Shown here piece after piece: positions 311 through 37,529 of a stretch of 37,529 nt of DNA. Positions within the stretch are counted from its first letter, which is position 1. Every line of letters begins with the position of its first letter. The translations under genes were made by a program, and so were the position numbers. The notes under the pieces were generated by a model. The model saw nothing but the letters and a program-made list of their open reading frames with translations. It was not told the DNA's origin and ran no database searches. This stretch comes from a virus (Duplodnaviria > Heunggongvirae > Uroviricota > Caudoviricetes), in the IMG/VR virus record IMGVR_UViG_2778261576_000005, positions 1 to 37,529 of that record, one strand, 5' to 3'.

Positions 311-413
311 TTAACACGTAAAATCGGTAACGGCTGGAAATCATTCAATACTCGCACTATCGAAAGTTAACCAGCCAGCCGTGGCACGTTCTTGCATACG
401 ACGTGCTACGGTT

Positions 414-611
414 TCATTTATCTCCGACCGGAAACTTCTTATACAAAGTCGATACGCCAACATCATAGATGATCGCTACCTTCTGGCGAGAAACTCCTGA
501 TGCAATTAGTCGTCCAGCCTGCGCCCATTGTTCTGGACAGCGACCTCCAGTTCGTCCCTGTGCGCGAGCAGTTGTAACTTTGCGTTTTTTTCTGGGCAAA
601 TTAACACGCAA
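414..611 (-). pseudogene. Serine DNA invertase (Hin/Gin/Pin family) C-terminal HTH fragment; catalytic domain absent
   Basis: GRTGGR...QWAQAGRLIASGVSRQKVAIIYDVGVSTLYKKFP matches the invertase C-terminal DNA-binding domain; track start is TTG; in-frame stop lies only 17 codons upstream. Confidence 0.55.
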
Positions 612-652
612 TTCTGGGCTGTCAGGTTGTGCGCTCTCCGCCCAGAATTGCG
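607..652. repeat. Perfect 13-bp inverted repeat (cgcaattctgggc / gcccagaattgcg) with 20-nt loop, between tail fiber stop and invertase remnant
   Basis: Arms at 607-619 and 640-652 are exact reverse complements; T-rich run follows on plus strand. Confidence 0.6.
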
Positions 653-670
653 CGTCAATTTGTCAGATTT

Positions 671-2599
671 TTAATCGTCCAGCCCAAATCTGCTGGTAAC
701 TGCTGGCAGCAGCGTAACTTGCAGATTTTTCGTTTCGTGGGTATTCGTTATGCTCAGCATGATAGCTGTTGTTGTGCTTCCCTGGTTCGCAACGGTCACA
801 AATCCGGAATCGACTCCCAGAACTGAATAAGGAGCTCCAAAACTTATTGACACGGATGAACCTACAACCCTGAAAAATCCATCAATTCTGTAGCTGGACA
901 TATTGTTATTTGCAGGGTCACGGATTAGCACCCACAGCGATATCCCCCTGAAAACTAAGTTTTTTACATCTGGTACTGATAGCGAAATAACAGTATTCCC
1001 GCCTGGTATCAGTTGTCCGGCGTATTTAGTTCCGTGCAAGTATTTTCCTGGTAAATCAAGATAATCCGACACCGGGGTCAATAGTGTGGAAACGTGTCGA
1101 CTGTCTGACTGAGTAAATACATTAAAACCTATATTTGCGTAATCGATTATTCTTCCGCCACTACCAGAAATAATGGCTTCTCGTTTCCCGGTATTGTTAC
1201 GTATTATCAGGTCCGTATTGTGATGACGTATAATACCAATAGAATATTTCGATTCTCCGTTCAGGCGATTATTTTCCACTGTTCCGCTAATCAGTGACGA
1301 CAACAGAATATCGTGTTCGTATTCCGGATTACCCGTTGTCAGATTTCCCTGTATATGACAATCGTATGCCCAGCCGACAGGTTCGTCTCCAAATTGCTGA
1401 ACGACTATTCGTTTGGCCGTATTCCCTGCAACCAGAACGTTTCGCACATCGTCAGTCTGGGACGTAATCAAAATTTCGTCGTCAACGGTGTTTCCGCTGA
1501 CAGTGACGTTGCTGCTGTCATCAATCCAGATTTTGCCCCTGAATGCGTTCCCGGAAATTACTGTATTACTGGAATCGTTTTCAACCTCACAGGAGCCATA
1601 AGTATTTCCGTAATCGTAATTACCCTGAACAATCAGATATCCGTTCCCGTTGATAAAATTGTATGAGGTCGCGTTTTTCCCTCCGTGCGTTGAATTGCCG
1701 ACGCACTTTGCGTTGGTTACCCCTATATGCTGAAAGTGCCCGGCGTTTACACCCTCAGGGGCTACTGACGTACAACCAAGTATCAGGGTATCACTGACAA
1801 CTCGATTATCCGGATTGTCAGACATCGCATCGTAATCCCTGGCTGTTATATCAGTTGCGTAGAAAAAACCCGCAAACTTGTTGAACAGGATTTTTATATT
1901 TTTGTAGTCAGATAAGTCCTGGTGGGCATTACACGAAAACGCCCTGGCTGAATGATGGTATTCACGACAGGTCTGCATGCCCGTTAATAACGATGTTATA
2001 TTACTTGATTTTATAACGAATCCGTTGTGAACCAGGTCTGCATCTCCCACCAGAACAATGGGTTTTGACAACGTTACAGTGTCGAACAAATACTTTCCTC
2101 TCCAGAATCCCAGTCGCGATCCTGCCGGAACCGAGTCAATTGCCCGCTGTATCGCCGCAGTGTCGTCAGCAATACCGTCACCGATAGCCCCAAAATCCCT
2201 CACACTAATAATCTCTGCGTTTTTGTCGTGCTGATTTCGGATAACAGCATTCTCCAGGTCCTGTTTAACTGCTACCAGGGAATCCCCGTCATCCGGGTCT
2301 GTAAATCCAAGGTTTTCGAGAGCCGTTGGTACTGTGCCGTCCGATTTGATATCACCAAACGGATTCTTGCGGCTTAACAGCAGCGCACGAAGCGCGGTAA
2401 GCAACTGGTCGTGCCGCTCCTTCTCCAGGCTGGCACCGGAGGCCTCCACCACGCTACAAAGTTCTTCCTGCAACATGTCAAAGTAGTCATCATCCAGATC
2501 GGTGGCAGGTGTGCCGGTCTGGGGGTTACCACGGGTAAAACCGTTCTTACCCGCGCCGAACTTATCCTTCTGCGCGGTTTTCGTGTCTATACGATGCAT
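671..2599 (-). CDS. Tail fiber / tailspike: conserved phage fiber N-terminus plus pectate-lyase-like beta-helix (putative polysaccharide depolymerase)
   Basis: 642 aa; N-terminal [20 protein letters not shown] fiber anchor motif; [22 protein letters not shown] pectate-lyase-type motif; repeated GNT/SGN beta-helix rungs; AT-rich relative to neighbours. Confidence 0.75.
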
Positions 2600-2602
2600 G
2601 GA

Positions 2603-3187
2603 TTACTCCGGATATTTAAAAATTACGTAGGTATGCGAAGGGCAGAGTTTGTTAAGCACACACTCGACAACGGTGTCGCCCCAGATACGCAGTGCGGAAT
2701 CACAGGGATCGCCACATGTCATCCAGGTGGTGTTGGTGGCAGCTGGCATGTTGACCTGCCAGTAATACCGCCATTCCGGCGCATTCACCGCGTCAGTACA
2801 GGCCGATGAGCAGGTGAAGGTGCTTTTGTCGTATCGCGTGATGGTGGCATCTGGTCTGCCCAGGGCAGCAAGCTGTGCAAGATAAAAATCCTCGTTGATG
2901 CCGCCCGCCAGGTTAACCTTCGCATCCAGCCGTTGCTGACGCTGGCGAAGGGTCTGCGTTCCCGCCGGAATACATTCATCCGGCAGACCGCACAGACGCT
3001 CCCAGCGGTTTATCAGTTCGGTGGTGGTGCGCGGATCCAGCTCCCGCATCAGGGCATCCGCACGCTGATGAACACGGGTTAATGATGGTGCTGCACCGGC
3101 AATCGCCGGATCGCTGGCTGACCACGCCGGACCGGGCGGCAACAGTGCTGACAACAGACGGATGTAATCATCGTTTGTCACGTCCAT
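2603..3187 (-). CDS. Tail protein, Mu gp48 / P2 gpI-like (YmfQ-like, DUF2313)
   Basis: 194 aa; position between baseplate J and fiber; resembles e14 YmfQ as recalled. Confidence 0.7.
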
Positions 3188-4236
3188 GAAATCGTCCCCA
3201 GAACCGCCAGTTCGTTTTTCGCAATGGAGATATTGTCTGCCGGTGCAAGCAACTGATGGCTGTATTCCCCGTTCGCACCGGAAATCGCTTCACTGATACG
3301 CGACACCTTCAGCTCTCCCTGCGGATAACCATCACGCAGCAGGAACGAACGCAACTCCGCGGTAATGGCAGCCCGTATTTCTGGTGTGTCCGGCGTCACG
3401 CGGATATGAAAATCCACCGTATGTGCCACCGGCCTGAATACATACAAATCAGAGCCTGCCACCGGGGCCAGTGGCCCGATATGTTGTCTTGCTGCCGTTT
3501 CCGTTGATTCTTCCGGAATGGGATTAATCAGGTCACTGCTGGCAATCATCACACCGACAGTTCCCGTTCCCATCCAGTGTCGGTATGTCCATGCGCGGGT
3601 AATGCCGGGCACTTCTTTAGCCCAGACGACATAGTCCCCGTCAGCCCCGCCCTGAGGCGTCCAGTAATACCGCTCAATGACGCGGGCGCGCCACATTTCC
3701 AGCTCTTCAGTATCAAATCCACCTGTCAGTGTATCTGCCACGCCGGAAGACGGCAGACCATTCACCGGCGTGACCAGGATTAATGACGTACCGTCGTCAG
3801 CGTTACCGACCGCGCCTGCACTTGAGCAGGCGATCGGCACGCGCAGGACACCACCGGAGCTGGTTGCATCGGCAGTTGCCGTGTACTGCACCAGGTCATC
3901 GCGCTGAATAACACTCCCGGCGGTCACCTTCAGGCCATCGCTGACACCTTCCCAGCGCATATACCCGCTGGCAGCCGTGGCCCCCTTGCGCGGACACCGT
4001 TTCATCGCAGCATGTCGCGCCAGCCAGGACTCATCGCACAAGTCAGGCAGCATGTTCATTGCCAGATAATCGATGTACCCGTAAACCGTATGCAGCGCCG
4101 CCGCATACACCTTTGCCCGCACGTCTTCATCCATGCGCCGGAGCGTGTCGCTGACGTCCAGCCTGGCGAATAAATCGTTACGGAGCATACTGATATTTTC
4201 TGCCAGCGTCGGGCGCTGAAATTCACTGTCCGCCAT
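3178..4236 (-). CDS. Baseplate J-like protein (Mu gp47-like)
   Basis: 352 aa; size and position in Mu-type baseplate block. Confidence 0.75.
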
Positions 4237-5196: not shown

Positions 5197-6275
5197 CAGA
5201 ACGGGTCCTCCTGTACTCTGGCTTTTTTCTTTTTCCGCGCGCCGGGGGCTTCGGGTTCAGGCAGATAAGCATCAGGCGGGCCGACACGGATTTCCGTCAG
5301 GGTGCCGTTCTGGTCTTGAGTAAACGTGACTTCCGAAACAAGCAGTTCGGTATTGTCGAAACCACAGACCGGATCAAAGACAATCACCCGCTGGTTGGGC
5401 TGCCACAGCGTACCGTTACCCTGTCGCCAGCCCTGCACCACATAGGTGGTTTCATCCGTCCGCGCCGCCCGTTGTCTGGCTTCAAAGTCCGCACGGGCAA
5501 TACAGCCTGCCCCCGTAGCCTGCCCTGTCTGCCTGATATACATCGGACGGTAACGGGCAATAAATGCGTCCTCTGTGCGGGCCCGCAGCGCGGTGGTGGT
5601 GGCCTCACCGAAATCATCGTCGTTTCCGGCACGCTGCCCCGCCACCTGGTAAACAGAAAACCGCTCCCGGATACTCTTCTCCGTATCGCAGGAAAGGATG
5701 TTTTCCCCGAGTACCAGCGCAGTATGTGCCCGCGTTGAGCCAATACCGCCAATCACCAGCCTGCCGTGCGGGTCGTCGTAAGCCAGTGCCTGCTGCTGAC
5801 CGAGTATTTTGTTGATTACCTCAATCACCGTTTCACCGTGATCAGGCTGAACATCAGGAATAACACCCGACGGCGCACCGCTGTTCACCACCTCAATGCC
5901 GAAAGGCGCAGCAAGCGCCTGCGCAATCTGCACCAGCGAGCGTCCGTTAAACTGTGTCGGTTCGGCTGCACAGTCAATCAGGTCAGCCGTCAGACTACGT
6001 CCGGCAATACCGGTGCTGACCGAACGGGAATCGTAACGAACGGGCGTCGCCTCCACCCAGCCGGTGATCACCAGCTCATCACCAATCAGCACTTCCACTT
6101 TTGAACCGTTTTTAATGCGCGGCTGAAGCGTGGTGATACCCTCATCTCCCGGCCACTGGCGGGTGATCTCCACACTGAAATCCCGCGCCAGCCGTTCAAT
6201 ACCGGCACCGATGCGCACCGATGTCCAGCCATTCCACTCCCGGCCATTTACCCGTAGCGTGACATTGTCGTTCAT
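5196..6275 (-). CDS. Tail/baseplate hub protein, Mu gp44 / P2 gpD-like
   Basis: 359 aa; follows the DNA circulation gene as in Mu. Confidence 0.65.
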   Translation of the reverse strand: MNDNVTLRVNGREWNGWTSVRIGAGIERLARDFSVEITRQWPGDEGITTLQPRIKNGSKVEVLIGDELVITGWVEATPVRYDSRSVSTGIAGRSLTADLIDCAAEPTQFNGRSLVQIAQALAAPFGIEVVNSGAPSGVIPDVQPDHGETVIEVINKILGQQQALAYDDPHGRLVIGGIGSTRAHTALVLGENILSCDTEKSIRERFSVYQVAGQRAGNDDDFGEATTTALRARTEDAFIARYRPMYIRQTGQATGAGCIARADFEARQRAARTDETTYVVQGWRQGNGTLWQPNQRVIVFDPVCGFDNTELLVSEVTFTQDQNGTLTEIRVGPPDAYLPEPEAPGARKKKKARVQEDPF

Positions 6276-32380: not shown

Positions 32381-32627
32381 GTGAGAGTCTGAAATAACCG
32401 CAAGCCGGAGATCAGCACCGGTCACCACAACAGCCACTGCTTTGGCGGTACCAGTTTGTACACTTGCTTCCGGCTGGTACCGCTCTTTTTACAAAACAGA
32501 GAAGAGCATCACCGGACGACGGGCTCATAACCCAATCCATCCGGGCGTCTGCCACCGCAGGTGTTCTTCTCTGTTTTGTGGAGAAACCAACCGACCTTGC
32601 AGGGTCGATATGATGAGGAGCAGCAAA

Positions 32628-37034: not shown

Positions 37035-37041
37035 ATAGAAT

Positions 37042-37075
37042 ATGAATAAACCCATCCAAAGATGGGTTTATTCAT
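37042..37075. terminator. Perfect 15-bp stem hairpin between convergent xis-like gene and the 153-aa ORF
   Basis: atgaataaacccatc-caaa-gatgggtttattcat; no clean T-run on either side. Confidence 0.5.
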
Positions 37076-37529
37076 AATGTTGAAGAGCAGCGAGTATCAG
37101 TTTTTTATGCCGTTTAACCATAGTTTTAGATATCTCAACTGCACATCGAACTTGTCTCATACAATGATCTGTAATGCGACCTTTTAGCACGTCACCATAT
37201 TGGATGGCTATTTTCTCTTTAATAATTTCAAGATCGAAAGCAGCATGAGCCTCAATGCAATTAACAAATGAGTCCCATTTAAGAAAATCATGGTCCTCTC
37301 TATTAATTTCGACCTGACAAGCCATAAGATCATTGTTTCTCTTAATAAATTCATTTATATCTGAATTTATTAGAAGAACTAAAAGAGGTTCACAGCAAAC
37401 AACCACCATATATTTTACTTTAGGTGGGGTCGTAAAATCACAATGAAGATACAATACATCACCGGGTGATATACCTCTTTCACGACTAAAATTAGCCTTA
37501 AAATCAGGAGGGAAACAATCACCCAGCAT
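37068..37529 (-). CDS. Hypothetical protein encoded on AT-rich DNA (153 aa), unknown function
   Basis: ORF runs to the window edge, which ends exactly on its ATG; convergent to the early-left operon. Confidence 0.5.
   Translation of the reverse strand: MLGDCFPPDFKANFSRERGISPGDVLYLHCDFTTPPKVKYMVVVCCEPLLVLLINSDINEFIKRNNDLMACQVEINREDHDFLKWDSFVNCIEAHAAFDLEIIKEKIAIQYGDVLKGRITDHCMRQVRCAVEISKTMVKRHKKLILAALQHYE

Follow-up and report, generated by a model that had tools for sequence, protein, structure and literature searches.

In the virus analysed here (an E. coli prophage; Caudoviricetes; the whole stretch of 37,529 nucleotides is called the window), an ancestral host-range switch has been frozen and largely deleted, leaving a dead 3' stub of the invertase gene and half of one crossover site, and beyond its first ~98 residues the only fiber is now a P22/Sf6-type beta-helix tailspike domain. 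Between fiber gene and stub, at 573-662, lies a segment that we identify from its sequence as the right end (attR) of a Mu-like transposable phage family, and as neither a terminator nor a crossover relic. We think, at odds of roughly two in three, that a Mu-like phage with a chaperone-free tailspike transposed into pin, that recombination then deleted the intervening DNA, and that a single fixed tailspike is what this left behind. Which hosts a phage can infect depends on the swapping of receptor-binding modules, a process at the heart of engineering phages for therapy, yet the DNA events that bring it about can seldom be seen. In this case each joint is resolved to a single nucleotide: the first coincides with an invertase crossover core, the second with the terminal base of a transposable-phage end within an invertase gene. 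The features concerned are as follows.

380..436, minus strand: stem-loop just 3' of the invertase stop codon, belonging to the recipient prophage lineage.
414..573, minus strand: 3' remnant of a Pin/Gin-type serine invertase, 53 codons with the HTH domain only; a pseudogene.
573..597, minus strand: R1-like terminal repeat of the putative Mu-like right end, in fiber sense GCCCAGAAAAAAACGCAAAGTTACA, its outer CA abutting invertase codon ~128.
597..662, minus strand: R2-like and R3-like repeats in inverted orientation around a 20-nt loop, from alignments to Mu-like ends.
671..2306, minus strand: tailspike receptor-binding module, fiber residues ~99-642, with an Sf6-like linker, a right-handed beta-helix and a C-terminal beta-sandwich.
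2297..2322, no strand assigned: relic of a Din-family crossover (pix) site, GTCTGTAAATCC AAGGTTTTCGAGAG, from comparison with e14 pixL/pixR.
2304..2410, minus strand: conserved block just N-terminal to the crossover site, shared with the fiber genes of Mu-like phages.
2313..2599, minus strand: StfP-type N-terminal fiber anchor, residues 1 to ~96, which attaches to a Mu-type baseplate; from DNA and protein identity.
2603..4236, minus strand: context genes directly upstream of the fiber, YmfQ (Mu gp48-like) and baseplate J (Pfam Phage_Mu_Gp48, 9e-27; Baseplate_J, 2e-52; names from PGAP).

The ORF at 671-2599 (minus strand) encodes one intact fiber of 642 amino acids, wrongly annotated in RefSeq as a pseudogene plus a 'GH55' protein. 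Its beginning is that of a short tail fiber of the StfP/e14-SfI kind: an StfP-homologous anchor adjoins ymfQ, positions 2304-3300 are 97% identical in DNA to e14 stfP/ymfQ, and residues 1-99 are 97% identical in protein to the short tail fiber of phages SfI and SfIV. The rest bears out the earlier note, which had proposed a single fiber ORF ending in a pectate-lyase-like beta-helix. Indeed, the fiber hits Pfam Pect-lyase_RHGA_epim at 1.7e-9, an AlphaFold (AF2) model of the monomer has a high-confidence beta-helix over residues 128-486 (pLDDT 80-96 over 130-480), and the best Foldseek matches of that model are tailspikes, with Sf6 first (4.7e-11) and HK620, CBA120 and Klebsiella depolymerases after it. 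The linker of the Sf6 tailspike is matched by residues 101-161 (4e-13), and the protein has both the linker and the right-handed parallel beta-helix receptor-binding domain of P22-like tailspikes; their N-terminal head-binding domain, PF09008, is missing from it and present in tailspikes of P22-like E. coli prophages that are 54% identical to the module. The protein database holds no relative of the module between 97% and 54% identity, and because its nearest tailspike relatives reach only 54% we think that its specificity probably differs from theirs. We predict that the module is probably a polysaccharide depolymerase, with O-antigen the most likely substrate, and the fiber is an uncharacterised candidate of this class. 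The earlier note had also seen no fiber assembly gene, and none is to be found: no tfa gene is annotated anywhere in the prophage, as judged from the 100% identical RefSeq record (E. coli KE51). Such spikes are known to have passed to other morphotypes (e.g. Det7). The modularity of tailspikes has been reviewed (PMC10408124).

The joint between anchor and tailspike falls at the crossover core, and it is there that homology to e14 ends. The relic at 2297-2322, located by comparison with e14, has a constant half identical to e14 pixL and a degenerate variable half (7/12 matches), and at 16/20 positions it is the best consensus match of the window, a score equalled in 3 of 200 shuffles. No partner site was found in the window, where the next-best matches lie at chance level, nor does the window contain a Mu gix with up to three mismatches; the residual gix/pix-like site that had been anticipated does exist, but as a half-relic of pix type standing alone. 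Invertible segments of the G/C/P type are defined by alternative fiber ends and tfa genes enclosed between a pair of inverted 26-bp sites, and this arrangement is absent. The conserved block beside the relic (2304..2410) is 88-89% identical over 107-113 nt to the fiber genes of the Mu-like prophages of E2348/69, Ec55 and R4, and in a blastn search with the window's first 14 kb it is, the right end aside, the sole DNA shared with Mu-like phage fibers. Strain 51489 has the same module (99% identity) on a P2-type fiber. In both cases the joint falls immediately after CCTTGG, the constant half being of e14 type in the window and of P1 cix type in the P2-like prophage of 51489.

Could an invertase alone have done this? 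Pin or Cin, perhaps that of another prophage, might have joined a fiber site to a quasi-site in tailspike DNA, the truncation of pin and the Mu-end being later and separate matters. The exactness of the fusion to two unrelated constant parts, which share no flanking homology upstream of the site, speaks for such a capture, as does the likeness of the variable half, with the consensus positions it keeps, to the Mu gix half-site TTTACAGGAA; moreover, some 15% of the fibers with this constant half-site turn non-canonical right at the core, in a sample of viral contigs that is biased, the search pattern having ended at the core. The variable half may, however, have been kept for protein reasons, the motif G-(F/M/L)-TD recurring in invertase-less fibers, and wild-type Din invertases have a strong preference for inverted sites that lie in cis and are accompanied by an enhancer. 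The right junction is left unexplained, and we regard capture by an invertase as an unlikely account of the whole, while it is quite compatible with transposition into pin as the second step of that process.

Homology to related prophages extends up to the pix core on the fiber side and resumes from invertase codon ~128 on the other, so that everything between has been replaced by the tailspike domain. The classical layout, seen in e14, is stfP-tfaP / tfaE-stfE / pinE; among the dusA prophage relatives, 19-5 and FG31-1 have an intact recombinase and an invertible fiber/tfa segment at the same place, CX12 and CE0021a have decayed versions of that segment there, and relatives carry intact pin across the insertion point. 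Mapping the breakpoint against e14, as the earlier note had advised, gave these same two joints (the pix core and, in the pinE alignment, residue ~128), and its proposal that an invertible host-range segment was replaced is supported.

A Pfam search of what survives of the invertase, at 414-573 (minus strand), recovered HTH_7 (4.5e-11) and detected no resolvase catalytic domain. Judged as a member of the Din family (Gin/Cin/Pin/Hin), the stub keeps the C-terminal HTH DNA-binding domain, with residues ...QKVAIIYDVGVSTLYKKFP aligning to PinE, and lacks the N-terminal catalytic domain with its active-site serine. Its DNA is 79% identical to the 3' end of e14 pinE and represents PinE residues ~128-184 minus a 12-nt in-frame internal deletion, and the alignment to e14 pinE and to CX12 pin holds up to 573 and diverges beyond. 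A remnant of the 3' end was thus rightly recognised, although its length is that given above and not the 45 or so codons first suggested; PGAP labels it 'missing N-terminus', and the longer, TTG-started ORF at 414-611 is probably spurious, extending into foreign sequence. The stem-loop 3' of the stub is probably the pin terminator: its region is 93-98% common to relatives with longer or intact pin, and in Rfam it matches only the 3' hairpin of CssrB (31.7 bits against a gathering score of 76). As a source of the stub we can discard phiSTEC1575-Stx2k, which shares the dusA integrase and DinI and has a right-end scar, but has no pin stub, so that the stub is native to the e14-like lineage. The biology of Pin is covered elsewhere (PMC12529663).

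The perfect 13-bp inverted repeat to which the earlier note drew attention is indeed at the junction (607-619 / 641-653) and proves to be the core of 23-nt arms (597-619 / 640-662). Perfect 13-mer repeats with a spacer of up to 60 nt occur at a mean of 0.03 per shuffled window, and the hairpin folds at -45 kcal/mol (z = -6.9). The segment 573-662 contains three TTCTGGGC repeats and ends in ...GTTACA, and all three copies of this repeat in the 37.5-kb window lie at 590-647. Compared with the terminal 47 nt of the Mu-like prophages, positions 573-619 are 89% identical to those of Ec55 and R4 and 87% identical to that of E2348/69, and in the window and these three complete prophages alike the similarity stops at one shared nucleotide, just outside TGTAAC. 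The segment has, in other words, the terminal repeats common to both ends of bona fide prophages, and CA at its boundary. A cognate transposase and a left end in the same element are missing; since the prophage has no transposase gene and no TTCTGGGC beyond 590-647, the right end here is a scar and not an active element. Relative to R1, the R2-loop-R3 unit is flipped in comparison with bona fide Mu-like ends, its loop being the reverse complement of theirs, which implies at least one further rearrangement.

A more prosaic account would have a plain illegitimate deletion or replacement that chanced to end in pin, with the repeat serving as the terminator or RNA-stabilising hairpin of the incoming gene. 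In the fiber sense the RNA hairpin is very stable, fully paired when G-U pairs are included; it stands 8 nt after the fiber stop codon, and related hairpins are found just 3' of stf/tfa in several lambdoid prophages. A rho-independent terminator it is not, however: on the fiber strand it is followed by CCCAGAAAAAAACG, with no U-tract, and a terminator scan finds nothing there. Further, hairpin and 24-nt tail match the termini of transposable prophages and end at exactly their last nucleotide, and the P22-like prophage with the nearest tailspike relative (patchy DNA similarity of ~70%) has no such element downstream. We give this account little credence. In Rfam the hairpin found no real family, just sub-threshold matches of microRNA shape, and a reading of arm and tail as decayed invertase coding sequence (translations such as 'PRIVRQLAQ') became too weak to keep once the Mu-like ends had been matched.

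The family to which we assign this end is clearly transposable. The prophages of E2348/69, Ec55 and R4 encode a Mu transposase (that of the E2348/69 family being WP_000500007.1), a MuB-like ATPase, Mor and a gpT head protein, and they sit inside eutC, ypdF and a TonB-receptor gene with direct duplications CACT, CGCT and CATT, that is, 4 bp under the TG...CA reading as against the 5 bp of Mu. The left end of the family occurs in 49 genomes at many loci and always starts at the same nucleotide. The TTCTGGGC repeats number three per end and, just as in Mu, the innermost one at the right end is inverted; E2348/69 has seven copies in 46 kb, six of them at the ends of the prophage. Ec55 and R4 have the architecture of a donor: they have no invertase and no tfa, just one 792-aa fiber followed by the right end, and that fiber has the same ...ALENLG block as the window and a Peptidase_S74 intramolecular chaperone. 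From stop codon to right end there are ~130 nt in these two prophages, compared with 8 nt in the window. Searches of 5,426 E. coli genomes, of IMG/VR, of the GTDB representative genomes (which gave no match in the donor search), of JGI metagenomes and of a set of 5.8 billion proteins brought up no Mu-like prophage with this very tailspike, and for this reason we infer the donor from relatives with other receptor-binding domains.

The arrangement itself recurs in 12 complete E. coli genomes, five IMG/VR viral contigs and one 210-kb metagenome contig, so that it is real and the assembly artefact that the earlier note had feared is not its cause. It is rare all the same (13/5,426 genomes), the IMG/VR matches representing the same prophage only and the JGI metagenomes the same prophage plus one deletion derivative. 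Carriers of the fiber include urinary, canine and poultry isolates of E. coli; KE51, TUM12368 and ATCC BAA-2469 are among the strains with the prophage. The same junction, with the same 12-nt deletion, is present in three different prophage backbones, and this argues for a single origin. Not every junction of the tailspike cassette is a clean transposon end: the P2-like prophage of 51489 lacks the R1 repeat, and where its cassette meets the remnant of another invertase the joint resembles microhomology (GGCTAATT). One might also suppose that the scar already stood beside the fiber module in a non-transposable prophage and came with the tailspike by homologous cassette exchange, with no transposition into pin in this lineage, and it is true that right-end scars adjoin stf/tfa in lambdoid prophages (the hairpin has hits in 667 of 5,426 genomes, or ~12% of complete E. 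coli genomes) and that the cassette has clearly moved between backbones; but this is very improbable, given that the sequence outside the R1 terminus is pin of the recipient lineage itself, running on without a break into that lineage's terminator, DinI and integrase, and that import by flanking homology would need the same joint already and merely shift the transposition to an earlier e14-like host.

Returning to transposition into pin, for which the anatomy, the homologies, the exact end points and the donor family's ability to transpose are established, the order of events that we infer would begin with a donor from the Mu-like family, whose single-ORF, invertase-less fiber ended in this tailspike just inside the right end. 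Such a phage, inserting itself by transposition into pin of an e14/SfV-like prophage and pointing the same way as the fiber operon, would have created the junction of ...GTTACA with pin codon ~128. Several points count against this model: the window has a single transposon end and thus no flanking target duplication that would prove transposition, no donor with this tailspike came to light, the duplications around the complete prophages are 4 bp and not 5 bp, the R2-loop-R3 unit is flipped, the junction in 51489 lacks R1, and the fiber stop codon is much closer to the right end than in Ec55 and R4. A second recombination, between resident stfP and the incoming fiber gene, would then have deleted all that lay between: the former variable segment together with the tfa genes, pixR, the part of pin comprising codons 1-127, and the remainder of the Mu-like genome. 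Its site may have been the shared block of ~107 nt, or directly repeated pix-type sites acted on by a Din invertase in trans. The product would have arisen once and spread between e14-like backbones by homologous recombination, and a derivative would have reached the P2-type fiber, joined exactly at that fiber's cix-type crossover core. Today the prophage would display one fixed receptor-binding protein, an StfP anchor of ~98 residues in a Mu-type baseplate carrying what is predicted to be a trimeric beta-helix tailspike; the spike is predicted to bind, and probably cleave, a surface polysaccharide, O-antigen most likely. Tailspikes of this class fold without a Tfa chaperone, and host-range switching is gone.

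If this is right, a Mu-type transposase, Din invertase sites and homologous recombination between tail genes are linked in one event, and orphan ends with TTCTGGGC repeats offer a simple sequence signature by which further cases might be recognised. The right-end scars that stand just 3' of stf/tfa in lambdoid prophages invite a wider and more tentative thought, to which we would give somewhat less than even odds: Mu-like phages may deliver receptor-binding cassettes by random insertion, also into resident non-transposable prophages, with recombination at the conserved block or the Din site fixing the fiber end and an orphan attR, and this may be a recurrent and hitherto unrecognised route to a new host range, of which orphan Mu-ends would be a datable footprint. 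Module swapping is already known; the transposon-end scar as its signature appears to be new, and a limited literature search, which is no proof of novelty, found no description of Mu-end scars beside fiber cassettes.

How, then, does this fiber locus compare with systems already known? Like the invertible segments of e14 (P, PinE), Mu (G, Gin) and P1 (C, Cin), it has a crossover site at the boundary of constant and variable parts and a stub of the same invertase family, and with e14 it shares the fiber anchor and the ymfQ/baseplate context at 97% identity; unlike them, it has no catalytic domain, second site, alternative fiber end or Tfa, and its variable part is a tailspike. Recombination of Cin at quasi-sites and the mosaicism of tail fibers at crossover sites were reportedly described by Iida and Hiestand-Nauer and by Sandmeier and colleagues. 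As in the Cin cases, new sequence is fused here to the constant fiber part at the crossover core and leaves a hybrid site; unlike in those cases, the cassette also carries a transposon end, and a part for an invertase in the joint can at most be suggested. The right end resembles Mu attR and the right ends of E2348/69, Ec55 and R4 in having three terminal repeats, the innermost inverted, and a terminal CA. Its TTCTGGGC repeat is, however, unrelated to Mu's own MuA sites, and it differs from the three prophage ends in being an orphan inside another prophage, with the flipped unit described above. Finally, the fiber has the Sf6-like linker, right-handed beta-helix and C-terminal beta domain of the podovirus tailspikes of P22, Sf6 and HK620, but has a myovirus StfP anchor instead of their N-terminal head-binding domain, adding to the P22-like, T7-like and CBA120-like anchors on which this tailspike domain family is also found.

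The window comprises an entire prophage (about 37.5 kb), 100% identical to the dusA-integrated prophage of E. coli KE51 (its integrase stop codon ends one base before position 1). Its regulators are lambdoid, its head is of HK97 type, and its contractile tail and baseplate are of Mu type (DNA circularization protein, gp46, baseplate J and YmfQ). The fiber and invertase region, encoded on the minus strand, closes the late operon at its distal end. We see the same arrangement in 12 complete genomes, in five IMG/VR contigs and in one 210-kb metagenome contig, so an assembly artefact can be ruled out; the tailspike module itself is rare (13 of 5,426 genomes). Elsewhere in the window, a perfect palindrome between convergent genes (37041-37076; ATGAATAAACCCATC ... 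GATGGGTTTATTCAT) looks like a bidirectional terminator, and a separate perfect 13-nt inverted repeat lies at 32493-32505 / 32565-32577, with a 59-nt spacer.

The earlier note proposed that a chaperone-independent, depolymerase-type fiber had replaced an invertible segment, leaving an invertase remnant and no fiber assembly gene. This picture is supported: an e14-type anchor leads into a tailspike domain, a stub of pin survives, and no tfa (fiber assembly) gene is annotated anywhere in the prophage. The two genes concerned are as follows.
414-573, minus strand: HTH tail of a serine invertase (HTH_7, 4.5e-11)
671-2599, minus strand: fiber ORF, intact, 642 aa
The stub aligns with PinE residues ~128-184 at 79% DNA identity and carries a 12-nt in-frame deletion (window ~536-541, with loss of the codons for RPKLT) that is common to all e14-type tailspike carriers; decayed invertases are common among the relatives sampled. 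Past the invertase stop lies a stem-loop at 380-436 (minus strand), probably just the pin terminator; against the Rfam sRNA family CssrB it scores 31.7 bits, below the gathering score of 76, and the similarity is confined to that family's terminal hairpin.

Over residues 1-99 the fiber shares 97% identity with e14 StfP and the SfI/SfIV short fiber, and from about residue 100 it resembles, at 54% identity, the tailspikes that P22-like E. coli prophages carry behind the head-binding domain PF09008; this tailspike domain family is found on T7-like and CBA120-like anchors too. Residues 101-161 match the Sf6 tailspike linker (4e-13). An AF2 model, which begins after the N-terminal 127 residues, gives a confident beta-helix at residues 128-486 and is confident for most of the C-terminal beta domain, and the top Foldseek match is the Sf6 tailspike (4.7e-11), ahead of spikes from Acinetobacter, Phi92, CBA120, Klebsiella and HK620 and of polygalacturonases. 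Linker, model and ranking thus agree on the C-terminal beta-helix that had been predicted. Spikes of the P22, Sf6 and HK620 class fold without a separate Tfa. In annotation, PGAP divides the intact ORF into an 'stfP pseudogene' and a 'GH55 family protein', and in all carriers RefSeq/PGAP gives the fiber (L001 3671-5599 in one comparison locus) as 'stfP, incomplete' plus 'glycoside hydrolase family 55 protein'; in strains Ec55 and R4 the Mu-like prophage fibers are likewise split. Two variants deserve mention. In P0002 (759 aa) the DNA-circularization protein contributes the N-terminus, which runs in frame into the tailspike from about residue 265; together with a metagenome contig bearing the same break (L151 1-2926), this fusion is a deletion derivative of the window prophage from which the whole baseplate has gone. 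In the sister dusA prophage FDAARGOS_1059 (L017 1428-2528, minus strand), the StfP anchor is joined at the same point to another domain (270 aa, glycine-rich, Pfam Gly_rich_2), and the locus has no invertase.

At the left joint, the e14 crossover site pixL reads CTCTCGAAAACCTTGG|TTTGGGAGAA, with an inverted partner upstream of pinE, and the window at the same place reads CTCTCGAAAACCTTGG|ATTTACAGAC. The suggested comparison with e14 did map the breakpoint: homology to e14, CX12 and FG31-1 ends at the window's crossover core, and pin resumes at about codon 128. The residual crossover site that had been anticipated is there in part, the constant half-site being intact, since window and pixL agree up to the core, while the variable half retains 7 of 12 positions and the window holds no partner site. 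Our survey of the sequence following the constant half-site is biased, the search pattern having stopped at the core. In strain 51489 the same module (99% identity) sits on a P2-type tail-collar fiber whose segment adjoining the joint is of P1 S-gene type, with the site CTTGATTACCTTGG|ATTTACAGAC against TTAATTACCTTGG|TTTGGGAGAA in a P1-like plasmid. The two sites show one module attached, each time at the crossover core, to constant parts that are unrelated to each other.

At the right joint, the perfect 13-bp inverted repeat noted earlier lies at 607-619 / 641-653, within longer arms of 23 nt whose core it forms; it is far beyond chance, and the hairpin has neither a following U-tract nor a terminator call. 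By BLAST, 667 of 5,426 E. coli genomes have sequence related to window 574-672, typically directly 3' of stf/tfa genes and close to prophage ends; the tail GCCCAGAAAAAAACGCGAAGTTACA is conserved after the hairpin in every copy, and similarity ends past ...TACA. One copy lies at the extreme end of a prophage inserted in eutC in strain E2348/69, which is Mu-like (Mu transposase, MuB-like ATPase, Mor and gpT head protein), has three TTCTGGGCG repeats at its left end, and at its right end shares Mu's own R1, R2, inverted-R3 layout, a hairpin of two inverted repeats plus a terminal repeat. Two further complete prophages of this family, in ypdF (Ec55) and a TonB-receptor gene (R4), terminate at the same nucleotides. 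Short direct duplications (CACT, CGCT and CATT) flank the three, the last repeat base being T in all; they appear to be 4 bp if the ends read TG...CA, unlike the 5 bp of Mu, which only E2348/69 fits (the other flanks are in locus pairs L145/L147 and L146/L148).
L142 9931-9936 / 45671-45676: direct repeats flanking the E2348/69 prophage
The left end was found at a wide variety of loci in 49 genomes, its first base always the same.

These termini share 89% identity with window 573-619, and in a four-way alignment (window, E2348/69, Ec55 and R4) all diverge exactly outside TGTAAC. Beyond the terminus, the window continues with pin from about codon 128, then its terminator, DinI and the integrase, a stretch common to relatives with an uninterrupted pin. 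Given the terminus match and the native pin sequence outside it, the junction repeat is, on sequence comparison, an orphan Mu-like right end, joined at its tip to the middle of the invertase gene; a single element end survives in the window. In the window (597-662) and in 51489 (L004 ~6010-6075) the R2-loop-R3 unit points the opposite way, with respect to R1 and the fiber gene, from that in all bona fide ends; its loop is the reverse complement of theirs, which suggests a flip between the 23-nt arms. The P2-like 51489 copy is without R1 and adjoins a different, shorter invertase stub at GGCTAATT microhomology, marking it as a secondary event.

Orphan Mu-like right ends (R3-loop-R2-R1, ending GTTACA) also lie directly 3' of stf/tfa in non-transposable prophages, for example the O157 and DA33133 prophages at ompW, phage phiSTEC1575-Stx2k, SerU-LTIIb and ECL27977, and in JNE21-009 one stands beside a reversed fiber module, next to a DNA-circularization gene.
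L013 3001-3075: orphan right end
L014: orphan right end
L015 3501-3577: orphan right end
L016 3486-3570: orphan right end
L152 ~3501-3544: orphan right end
L153 ~3501-3550: orphan right end

The Ec55 and R4 phages have neither invertase nor tfa, and carry one 792-aa fiber that combines the same conserved block as in the window with another receptor-binding domain and a Peptidase_S74 intramolecular chaperone; directly after it comes the right end. Besides the right end, the first 14 kb of the window share only one block of DNA similarity with the Ec55, R4 and E2348/69 phages.
Just upstream of the crossover site, fiber strand: 107-nt shared block, 88-89% DNA identity
The E2348/69 Mu-like prophage is another frozen switch, with a full S-U-U'-S' type segment and canonical pix sites, and an invertase cut to 31 codons (L012 2868-2960 = L142 45461-45553) directly before the right end.

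We consider it likely that a Mu-like phage with a tailspike-ended fiber inserted itself by transposition within the pin gene of an e14-like prophage, oriented like the fiber, and that recombination between the two directly repeated fiber genes, either in the 107-nt block or at pix-type sites, would then have deleted the DNA between them. Lost would be the old variable segment, the tfa genes, pixR, pin codons 1-127 and the Mu-like genome, and what remained would be anchor, tailspike, attR (the Mu-like right end) and pin stub. No donor with this exact tailspike turned up in any collection searched. Since the joint and the 12-nt deletion are common to all e14-type carriers, in three different backbones, comparison of the carriers points to a single origin and later spread. 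During packaging, Mu takes in host DNA flanking its right end, and one might speculate that this aided the spread of the joint.

In its overall make-up the prophage is a hybrid of the same kind as e14, SfV and SfI. We found no description in the searchable literature of a transposable-phage end at a fiber-module joint. Podovirus spikes on myovirus tails, and module exchange, are well known (PMC10408124); the unexpected part is that one joint is a transposable-phage end and the other an invertase crossover core.
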